DNA of 1,735 nucleotides from Escherichia phage ECO95 1-6-1 (OR845713.1); one strand, 5' to 3'. Counted from the stretch's first letter, positions 3 through 1,735 are shown. The notes: generated by a model not told the origin, from the sequence alone. Program-made: numbers and translations.

Positions 3-1735
3 GATGGCCTGTGTACCGCCAGGGTCAACGGCCTGGAGGAAACCATCCTCTACAGCCGGGATGCCGCAGGCCGCCTGGCAGAAGTCATCACTCCGGAAGG
101 CAAAACGCAGTATGCGTATGACAAATCCGGCAGGCTGACGGGTATCTTCAGCCCGGACGGCACATCACAGCGCACCGGCTATGATGAACGCGGGCGGGTG
201 AATGTCACCACTCAGGGCCGACGGGCCATTGAATACCACTACCCCGACGAACACACCGTCATCCGCTGTATCCTGCCACCGGAAGATGAACGCGACAGAC
301 ACCCCGACGGATCCCTGCTGAAAACCACATACCGCTACAACGCCGCCGGAGAACTGACGGAGGTTATCCTGCCGGGGGATGAGACGCTGACGTTCAGCCG
401 TGATGAGGCGGGACGTGAAGTGCTCCGGCACAGTAACCGGGGTTTTGCCTGTGAACAGGGCTGGAATGCAGCCGGTCAGCCTGTCAGCCAGCGCGCCGGA
501 CTTTTCCCGGCGGAAGCCACATGGGGCGGACTGCTCCCTTCACTGCTACGGGAATACCGTTACGACAGCGCGGGTAACGTATCAGGCGTCACCAGCCGGG
601 AAGATTACGGACGGGAAACACACCGGGAGTACCGGCTTGACCGGAACGGCCAGGTCACGGCGGTGACAGCCTCAGGCACCGGGCTGGGCTATGGCGAAGG
701 CGACGAGACTTATGGCTATGACAGCTGCGGCTACCTGAAGGCGCAGTCTGCGGGCAGACACCGGATAAGCGGAGAGACTGACCAGTATGCCGCAGGCCAC
801 CGGCTGAAACAGGCCGGAAACACACAGTATGACTATGACGCCGCAGGCCGGATGGTCAGCCGCACAAAACACCGTGACGGCTACCGCCCAGAAACAGAGC
901 GGTTCCGGTGGGACAGCCGGGACCAGCTGACCGGGTATCGCAGCGCACAGGGGGAGCAGTGGGAATACCGCCACGACGCCAGCGGCAGACGGACGGAAAA
1001 ACGCTGCGACCGGAAGAAAATCCGTTTTACGTACCTGTGGGACGGCGACAGTATTGCGGAAATCCGGGAATACCGCGATGATAAACTGTACAGCGTAAGG
1101 CACCTGGTGTTTAACGGCTTTGAGCTGATAAGCCAGCAGTTCAGCCGGGTACGACAGCCGCATCCGTCCGTGGCCCCGCAGTGGGTGACGCGAACGAATC
1201 ATGCGGTGAGCGACCTGACGGGCCGCCCGCTGATGCTCTTTAACAGTGAAGGTAAAACCGTCTGGCGGCCGGGGCAGACCAGCCTGTGGGGGCTGGCACT
1301 CAGCCTGCCCGCAGACACAGACTACCCGGACCCGCGCGGGGAGCGGGACGCGGAAGCCGACCCCGGCCTGCTGTATGCAGGACAGTGGCAGGATGCAGAA
1401 TCGGGGTTGTGCTATAACCGGTTCCGATATTACGAGCCGGAAACCGGGATGTACCTGGTGAGTGATCCACTGGGGTTGCAGGGAGGGGAGCAGACTTACC
1501 GGTATGTGCCGAATCCTTGTGGGTGGGTTGATCCGCTGGGATTGGCTGCAAGTTCTAAAATCAGCAGTTTGATGGACTATATTGGCGATGGTCGTCGTGT
1601 TAGTGGGCATACGGGTTTCCTGGATGGGGTTCGTTTATCACGTAGTCAAATAAACAATATTGCTAAAGAAATGGAGAAGCTAGGAATTAAAGTAATAAGG
1701 AAAGCAGATAAATATTTGCCACCAAATGCTAGGGC
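3..1735 (+). CDS. rhs: Rhs-family YD-repeat protein (polymorphic toxin), internal fragment; both ends of the gene lie outside the window
   Basis: Frame 3 is open across the whole window (hand translation, no stop). Translation contains many YD-repeat units (e.g. QYAYDKSGRLTGI at 108-146, TYRYNAAGELTEV at 327-365, EYRYDSAGNVSGV at 552-590, QYDYDAAGRMVSR at 825-863) and the Rhs core terminus LLYAGQWQDAESGLCYNRFRYYEPETGMYLVSDPLGLQGGEQTYRYVPNPCGWVDPLGL (1368-1544). High-GC core followed by an AT-rich tip is the classic enterobacterial Rhs architecture. The paralogue (rhsA/B/C/D...) cannot be resolved from this fragment; the symbol is given at family level only. Confidence 0.93.
51..1100 (+). repeat. 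YD-repeat array (protein-level degenerate repeats forming the Rhs shell)
   Basis: Repeated Y/F-x-Y/R-D-x-x-G-R/x-L/V units read directly from the translation at nt 51-77 (YSRDAAGRL), 111-137 (YAYDKSGRL), 174-200 (TGYDERGRV), 330-356 (YRYNAAGEL), 393-419 (FSRDEAGRE), 555-581 (YRYDSAGNV), 630-656 (YRLDRNGQV), 711-737 (YGYDSCGYL), 828-854 (YDYDAAGRM), 903-929 (FRWDSRDQL), 966-992 (YRHDASGRR) and 1032-1064 (YLWDGDSIAEI). The repeats are degenerate at protein level and not tandem at DNA level. Confidence 0.85.
1368..1544 (+). other. Conserved Rhs core C-terminal segment with two DPxGL motifs; putative aspartyl autoprotease site, predicted cleavage after Leu at 1542-1544
   Basis: Translation LLYAGQWQDAESGLCYNRFRYYEPETGMYLVSDPLGLQGGEQTYRYVPNPCGWVDPLGL. 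Asp codons at 1464-1466 and 1530-1532 lie 22 residues apart, each in a DPLGL context. The segment ends with the canonical PxxxxDPxGL (1515-1544). In characterised Rhs/TcC proteins this region forms the autoproteolytic site that releases the C-terminal toxin; recalled from the literature, not computed. Confidence 0.8.
1545..1735 (+). other. Variable C-terminal tip of the Rhs protein (putative toxin domain), N-terminal ~63 residues only; family unassigned
   Basis: Starts at the first codon after DPxGL. GC falls to about 40% (hand count 77 G+C in 191 nt) against about 63% in the core (38/60 for nt 1-60). The protein sequence is unrelated to YD repeats and rich in K/I/S. The frame stays open to the window edge. 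Confidence 0.7.

Follow-up and report, generated by a model that had tools for sequence, protein, structure and literature searches.

The question raised by this locus is where the partners of an Rhs toxin tip are to be found when the DNA ends inside the tip. The window, meaning the whole stretch of 1,735 nt that was analyzed, had been described beforehand as carrying such a tip, with its usual partners (a small downstream immunity gene, orphan cassettes, an N-terminal PAAR-like delivery domain, and neighboring secretion genes) lying outside it and any novelty awaiting confirmation in the flanks. The list of ORFs and a domain search agreed that all of these partners were absent from the window. 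In a six-frame reading, frame 3 was open throughout, from nt 3 to 1735, with neither start nor stop, and its 577-aa product was a fragment of an Rhs protein; the remaining five frames were stop-rich over nt 1545 to 1735, and the only closed ORFs were short or antisense ones. Their absence is explained by the window ending inside the gene. The preliminary description was thus right to call the system incomplete as far as the window goes, but the incompleteness is a matter of window truncation and not a feature of the sequence. The following features were read in the window.

Nt 3 to 1544, plus strand: Rhs YD-repeat shell and Rhs-associated core, C-terminal ~514 codons, open at the 5' end of the window (Pfam, NCBIfam, and PDB 7pq5 matches).
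Nt 1464 to 1478, plus strand: first DPLGL, in the C-terminal aspartyl-autoprotease region (motif search on the translation).
Nt 1530 to 1544, plus strand: second DPLGL, at the core/tip boundary (motif search and alignment to Photorhabdus laumondii Rhs1).
Nt 1545 to 1735, plus strand: putative Rhs-CT1 tip, first 63 of 150 codons, which make up the beginning of the Tox-MPTase4 zincin domain and end before FD, RK, and HEVIH (DNA identity to complete copies).

The translation of the window matched Pfam RHS_repeat (PF05593) in 7 stretches (4.5e-29) and NCBIfam YD_repeat (TIGR01643; 2.5e-28). Rhs_assc_core (TIGR03696; 2.6e-19) covered residues 452 to 514 and ended at nt 1542 to 1544, the Leu of the second DPLGL, and the last 109 core residues matched the structure of P. 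laumondii Rhs1/Tre23 (PDB 7pq5; 2.7e-24). The Asp of the second DPLGL (nt 1530 to 1532) aligned with the catalytic D1338 of P. laumondii Rhs1 (WVDPLGLAASS against FINPLGLAGEN, the N being that of the D1338N structure 7pq5); D1338N is the catalytic-null mutant for autocleavage of Rhs1 (PMC8636562). The GC content was 0.62 in nt 1 to 1544 and 0.40 in nt 1545 to 1735, a drop that is the usual compositional break of Rhs core/tip junctions. The core ended in PxxxxDPxGL with the autoprotease Asp and was followed by a variable, low-GC tip. With repeats, core, autoprotease Asp, and GC break all present, the feature belongs to the Rhs/YD-repeat polymorphic toxins, and nt 1545, where the tip had been said to begin, is its exact first base, since the core ends at nt 1544. 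A search of the window against Rfam matched nothing. An antisense ORF of 312 aa (nt 672 to 1610, minus strand) was rejected as a probable non-gene, since Rhs cores rich in GC can be expected to contain long antisense ORFs.

The first tip codon lies at nt 1545, and the tip opens with AASSKISSLMDY. Over positions 1540 to 1735 (196 nt), the DNA was 100% identical in 1,164 of 5,426 complete Escherichia coli genomes, with one copy each, and these copies were annotated as zincin-like metallopeptidase toxin domain-containing protein. The 63 tip residues of the window scored 15.6 bits against Pfam Tox-MPTase4 (PF15640), below the 25-bit cut-off, and covered profile positions 1 to 51 only; the whole 150-aa tip taken from the DNA-identical genomes scored 117 bits (7e-34) over positions 1 to 132 of 132. 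The signature F[DN], [RK], HExxH by which Zhang et al. 2012 defined Tox-MPTase4 (PMC3482391) was found in the whole tip as AAFDYG, YLRK, and HEVIH (identical-start tips of loci L001, L003, and L004). All three motifs fall past nt 1735, with HEVIH ~23 codons beyond the window end. By DNA identity to the complete copies, the tip is assigned as the start of the Rhs-CT1/Tox-MPTase4 tip. The stretch can be labelled accordingly, as its N-terminal part, a label of little import beyond annotation. When solved structures were searched with the tip, only chance-level matches were obtained, and no sequence-detectable Tox-MPTase4 structure was found.

According to three citing reports (PMC6730261, PMC6099711, and bioRxiv 10.1101/2024.03.05.583533), the E. 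coli PAAR-Rhs protein with an MPTase4 domain of Ma et al. 2017 (Environ Microbiol 19:345) is Rhs-CT1, an antibacterial, T6SS-dependent toxin with the cognate immunity protein Rhs-CTI1 (cti1), present in STEC004 and O104:H4. In E. coli O157:H7 EDL933, the 444-aa RhsG (z0702) is encoded downstream of RhsF (z0705) and has a 69-aa ORF on its 3' side (PMC7216683); this RhsG is the same module as the window tip.

The anatomy of the locus was read in five annotated E. coli genomes rather than in the window's own flanks. In all five, the tip was found at the same place in the chromosome, flanked by cusS and nfrB, with the gene order cusS, vgrG, DcrB/DUF1795, Rhs, small ORF, rhs fragment, ISAs1/ISEc1 transposase, nfrB, as follows.

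vgrG: upstream of the DcrB/DUF1795 gene (Phage_GPD, 5e-75).
DcrB/DUF1795 protein: 153 aa, EagR-type chaperone family, directly upstream of rhs (1.4e-27).
Rhs protein: roughly 1,620 aa.
rhs fragment: 180 nt, a copy of the rhs 5' core, downstream of the small ORF.
ISAs1/ISEc1 transposase (H-repeat element): after the 180-nt rhs fragment.

The upstream secretion genes that had been anticipated, vgrG and a chaperone gene, were thus located directly upstream of rhs, both being adjacent to it in 5/5 homologous E. coli loci. The DcrB gene was also found at L006, an independent PAAR-Rhs locus. The anticipated PAAR-like N terminus was likewise recovered in full-length homologues, as prePAAR, transmembrane (TM) segment, PAAR, and DUF6531. 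In E24377A, the full-length Rhs carries the prePAAR motif AARLGDEIQH and a hydrophobic (TM) stretch, together with PAAR (3.5e-13), DUF6531, RHS repeats (1.6e-76), and Tox-MPTase4 (4.9e-31), and its shell matched the cryo-EM structure of P. laumondii Rhs1-Tre23 (7pq5) with 2e-254. On the full-length CT1 genes of E24377A and O104:H4, the prePAAR_I profile scored 21.1 bits, below its cut-off.

The predicted small ORF close behind the tip was found in the homologous loci. Its annotated start is a TTG, which gives 69 aa, and an ATG 12 nt upstream, which is conserved in homologues, gives a 73-aa form (MALD...); depending on the start chosen, it begins 26 to 38 nt past the rhs stop. The remainder of the tip and the small ORF were contiguous in 1,153 genomes, compared with 1,158 that carried the tip start, and the two are therefore virtually never apart. 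Relatives of the ORF were few, amounting to nine clusters among 5.8 billion. At L006, the order is DcrB, PAAR-Rhs-MPTase4, and then directly a homologue of the small ORF, with identities to the CT1 locus of 63% for the tip, 68% for the core, and 70% for the small ORF; toxin and small ORF have thus diverged together while remaining paired, as a cognate pair should. The product is acidic and, judged from its sequence, has neither a signal peptide nor a TM segment. No Pfam or NCBIfam family matched it, every listed database record names it a hypothetical protein, and its AlphaFold2 (AF2) model, built on a 6-sequence alignment, had a mean pLDDT of 48.9. Linkage, co-divergence, and the literature support this 69- to 73-aa ORF as the candidate CTI1 immunity protein. 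As it is named hypothetical and lacks a Pfam or NCBIfam model, automated annotation will keep missing the immunity gene. A promoter and terminator scan 3' of the tip at L003 gave counts near those of shuffled controls.

The same tip was found in three arrangements: on a full-length gene, on a ~3-kb orphan, and on a 1.3-kb orphan. Full-length genes occur in E24377A and O104:H4. In Ec1119, an Rhs with an AHH tip and its immunity gene come first, and the CT1 tip follows on an orphan of ~3 kb that is truncated at its 5' end; in O157:H7 PV15-279 and SS52, the orphan measures 1.3 kb and follows the main rhs with its immunity gene. An orphan arrangement was also seen in Shigella flexneri. When the whole E24377A gene was used as the query and 60 evenly spaced rows down the ranking were sampled, 8 proved to be an uninterrupted full-length CT1 gene, which corresponds crudely to ~340 genomes, or ~30% of tip carriers. 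By this crude estimate, the tip is commoner as an orphan than on a full-length gene. The top protein matches of the window were mostly 975-aa N-terminally truncated ORFs, and the best cluster representatives were 975-aa orphans of 98% identity. Orphan cassettes, expected in the preliminary description downstream of the tip, do exist at the locus, but the CT1 tip is itself often the orphan (as in O157:H7 and Ec1119) and is the last cassette before the insertion sequence, with nothing orphan-like after it, only the 180-nt rhs fragment and ISAs1/ISEc1. The window fits either a full-length gene or a long orphan; the short O157 orphan does not fit, its homology beginning only at window position 513. 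A cross-species scan with a tip alignment returned one species representative, the degraded orphan copy of S. flexneri; this was a restrictive two-pattern scan and gives no estimate of distribution.

The core of the window was compared with the main rhs and the orphan of O157:H7 PV15-279 (L001). Against the main core, positions 1 to 1349 showed 1 mismatch, along with a duplication of 8 bp that puts the O157 gene out of frame, and positions 1350 to 1524 showed 9 mismatches. Against the orphan, 38 mismatches fell in 513 to 1274 and 0 in 1275 to 1735. Both asymmetries were significant (Fisher P = 3e-8 and 1e-8). On these patterns, the window reads as O157:H7 main core up to a crossover and as orphan thereafter, the crossover interval being the following.

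Nt 1275 to 1349, no strand assigned: 75-nt stretch of identity, with main (rhsF-type) sequence upstream and orphan (rhsG-type) sequence downstream.

Joining the O157 upstream sequence, the window, and the remainder of the orphan tip in silico gave an intact ORF of 1,611 codons. In the complete genome of SS52 (O157), main gene and orphan had swapped patches of SNPs, and the main gene equaled window positions 1150 to 1498 at 100%; main/orphan exchange therefore does occur. The best match of the whole window was 96.5% among the 5,426 complete E. coli genomes and 96.2% in the plasmid collection, and the phage collection gave none. The exact 112-nt junction had 0 matches in genome, metagenome, and viral contig collections, and neither the 577-aa product of the window nor the predicted 1,611-aa recombinant had a match on record in the protein collection. 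That the mosaic is a real main-by-orphan recombinant is judged to stand at close to even odds.

Taken as a whole, the data are best explained by a T6SS Rhs-CT1 tip with CTI1 immunity, in a window cut inside the gene, to which we give a probability of roughly 0.85. Full-length status and the presence of cti1 for the window's own allele would follow from the homologous loci. One competing explanation places the window within a silent long orphan of the 975-aa, 5'-truncated type, preceded by a different, full-length rhs with its immunity gene, so that it would be a reserve module without PAAR. It draws on the rarity of full-length CT1 (~8/60 sampled rows, ~340 genomes, against 1,164 tip genomes), the dominance of 975-aa truncated ORFs among the top protein matches, and the fact that the 3-kb orphan of Ec1119 would hold the whole window; yet positions 1 to 1349 differ by 1 mismatch from the main full-length rhs of O157:H7 and reach at most 96.5% identity to any long orphan, and homology to the O157 orphan starts only at window position 513. 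This explanation is considered unlikely. A different doubt concerns the mosaic itself, which might be an assembly artefact in which reads from the main core and the orphan core were joined over the identical 75 nt. A short-read mis-join there would look the same as a recombinant, both parental halves lie 1.9 kb apart within the same O157 genomes, the exact junction occurred in 0/5,426 complete genomes and in no further collection searched, and the window is very short, like fragmentary contigs. Set against this, main/orphan exchange is real in SS52, full-length CT1 genes are present in other lineages, and the sequence around the window end at nt 1735 is single-copy, so that no contig break caused by a repeat would be expected there. 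An artefact is regarded as doubtful, though it has to be taken more seriously than the long orphan.

The last alternative, that the tip and small ORF are pseudogenes in decay and do not serve as toxin and immunity protein, is very improbable, even though rhsG and its 69-aa ORF were judged probable pseudogenes by Vazquez-Lopez and Navarro-Garcia (PMC7216683), the copy at the S. flexneri locus is degraded, and the ORF is hypothetical in all listed records, without a family and with a low-confidence AF2 model. The two are at least 99% identical and contiguous in 1,152 genomes, and both are intact and co-diverged at L006 (63% and 70%), where the catalytic motifs of the tip are kept. T6SS-dependent killing and a cognate immunity protein are, moreover, reported in the Rhs-CT1 literature (PMC6730261, PMC6099711, bioRxiv 10.1101/2024.03.05.583533).

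For the preferred reading, an Rhs-CT1 tip with CTI1 immunity, a mechanism can be proposed from homologues. In these, an EagR-type chaperone stabilizes the prePAAR/TM N terminus, the VgrG spike is bound by prePAAR-PAAR, the tip is held inside the shell, and toxicity depends on aspartyl autoproteolysis on each side of the shell (PMC8636562). By analogy, the Rhs shell would enclose the CT1 tip, the DUF1795 chaperone would hold the N terminus, and PAAR would mount on the cognate VgrG, whose gene lies close by on the 5' side. [quoted passage not shown] The cytoplasm is favored because effectors with prePAAR usually act there (PMC8636562) and no export signal is present in the immunity protein; the membrane/wall activity given to MPTase4 in one preprint (bioRxiv 10.1101/2024.03.05.583533) conflicts with it. 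The producer would be protected by the acidic 69- to 73-aa CTI1, made without a signal peptide from the ORF 26 to 38 nt downstream.

The window allele itself may have arisen by homologous recombination at a locus of the O157:H7 type, between the core of the main rhs and that of the orphan behind it, which are direct repeats. The 1,942 bp lost in this way would comprise the main tip with its immunity gene and the orphan's 5' end, and the formerly orphan CT1 tip would end up on a full-length, deliverable Rhs. A tip switch of this kind in O157:H7-type E. coli, bringing the reserve CT1 tip into use at the cost of the rhsF tip and immunity, is put forward tentatively, its chances being somewhat short of even. 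If the mosaic is genuine, it would be a natural case of orphan-toxin activation by recombination in an EHEC-type background and would bear on strain-to-strain T6SS compatibility; if the switch is as proposed, the strain would have exchanged one T6SS toxin for another and would no longer be immune to the former one, through an allele seen in 0/5,426 complete E. coli genomes.

The partners expected of the tip thus appear, by comparison, beside identical or near-identical copies in complete E. coli genomes, and the CTI1 ORF, EagR-type chaperone, VgrG, and PAAR N terminus are predictable from >1,100 genomes and published work. The suggestion that novelty would be confirmed in the flanks did not hold, as the system is published as Rhs-CT1/CTI1. 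The tip and its partners are already known; the only mildly interesting point is the apparent crossover between main gene and orphan, itself a known mechanism.

Compared with the Tox-MPTase4 family (PF15640; PMC3482391), the whole tip is alike from end to end, signature included, and no difference was found. Rhs-CT1/CTI1 of STEC004 and O104:H4 has, according to those reports, the same Tox-MPTase4 tip as the window. In O104:H4 FDAARGOS_349, the DNA of the tip start is identical to that of the window and sits on a full-length PAAR-Rhs gene, followed by a ~70-aa ORF (WP_001299578.1), within a vgrG island. The core alleles differ, however, that of the window being of the O157 main-rhs type and that of O104:H4/E24377A only 96.4% identical over the window. 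P. laumondii Rhs1-Tre23 (7pq5; PMC8636562) shares with the CT1 loci the order vgrG-eagR-rhs-immunity, the prePAAR-TM-PAAR-shell architecture, and the C-terminal autoprotease Asp, but its tip is an ADP-ribosyltransferase, whereas the CT1 tip is a zincin metallopeptidase.

One close counterpart of the mosaic is the rhsF (z0705)/rhsG (z0702) locus of EDL933, which is of the same type; the two halves of the window match the rhsF-type core and the 444-aa rhsG-type orphan of O157:H7. In O157, the rhsF- and rhsG-type genes are separate, with the rhsF tip and immunity gene between them, whereas in the window both are fused in one frame. In Salmonella Typhimurium, Koskiniemi et al. reportedly found in 2014 that a main rhs core can undergo homologous recombination with the core fragment of an orphan lying behind it, whereby the main tip and immunity gene are deleted and the orphan toxin is activated. 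The window mosaic implies the same type of event, in another species, with another tip, and at another locus, and as read here from SNP patterns only.

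When the window was compared with the O157:H7 PV15-279 locus (L001), it was found to be a clean mosaic. Positions 1 to 1349 correspond to the core of the main, full-length rhsF-type gene of O157:H7, and positions 1275 to 1735 to the orphan rhs downstream of it, an rhsG-type, 5'-truncated core with the CT1 (Tox-MPTase4) tip. The following features of the window were recorded:

1275-1349: crossover interval, equivalent to L001 9794-9868 and 11736-11810
672-1610, minus strand: antisense ORF of 312 aa, spanning the GC-rich Rhs core

The mosaic implies either a 1,942-bp deletion through recombination or a chimeric assembly. 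Composition and codon bias most likely account for the antisense ORF.

The main rhs of PV15-279 was frameshifted by an 8-bp tandem duplication (GTCAGCCT; L001 ~8986-8993) located between window positions 474 and 475. This duplication was absent from both the window and O157 SS52, and the rhs frame is therefore intact in both. The main rhs core and the orphan core of O157:H7 SS52 (L004 10852-12375 and 13306-14528) showed reciprocal patches, each carrying SNPs of the other, for example at 939-1141 and 1407-1469 in window numbering. Such a pattern suggests that gene conversion has occurred repeatedly between main and orphan, or else that the assembly is noisy. A 951-aa protein (P0024) with 97% identity to the window product is labeled Aeromonas media at NCBI; because this identity is at the E. 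coli level, the label probably reflects contamination or mislabeling.

The ORF following the CT1 tip was named only "hypothetical protein" in every database record listed. At comparison locus L003 it was recorded as follows:

12022-12243: CT1 immunity ORF, annotated start TTG, 69 aa

An in-frame ATG (MALD...) was observed 12 nt upstream of the TTG and was retained in all homologues, including those of 55 to 70% identity, making 73 aa the likelier length of the product. About 115 nt 3' of the ORF was a perfect hairpin with a 14-bp stem (L003 12358-12389; ATGGAAATAGTGAT ATAC ATCACTATTTCCAT), a possible terminator or cassette boundary. The immunity ORF was separated from an ISEc1/H-repeat transposase by a 180-nt copy of part of the 5' core of rhs (L003 12448-12627; also L008 9911-10090), ∼91% identical to L003 8557-8736 and annotated as a partial pseudogene.

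Diverged relatives were found at other loci. On Logan contig L006, a SymE-type toxin gene (6285-6518, minus strand) was located directly downstream of the divergent Rhs-MPTase4/immunity pair. The metagenomic enterobacterial contig L005 (region 8562-17239) encoded two tandem, diverged homologues of the immunity ORF (10001-10252 and 10485-10736), and no rhs gene was found near them on that contig. They fell within a run of ∼17 small same-strand ORFs without Pfam matches, preceded by lolCDE-nagK-cobB, and this run looks like an orphan-immunity gene array.
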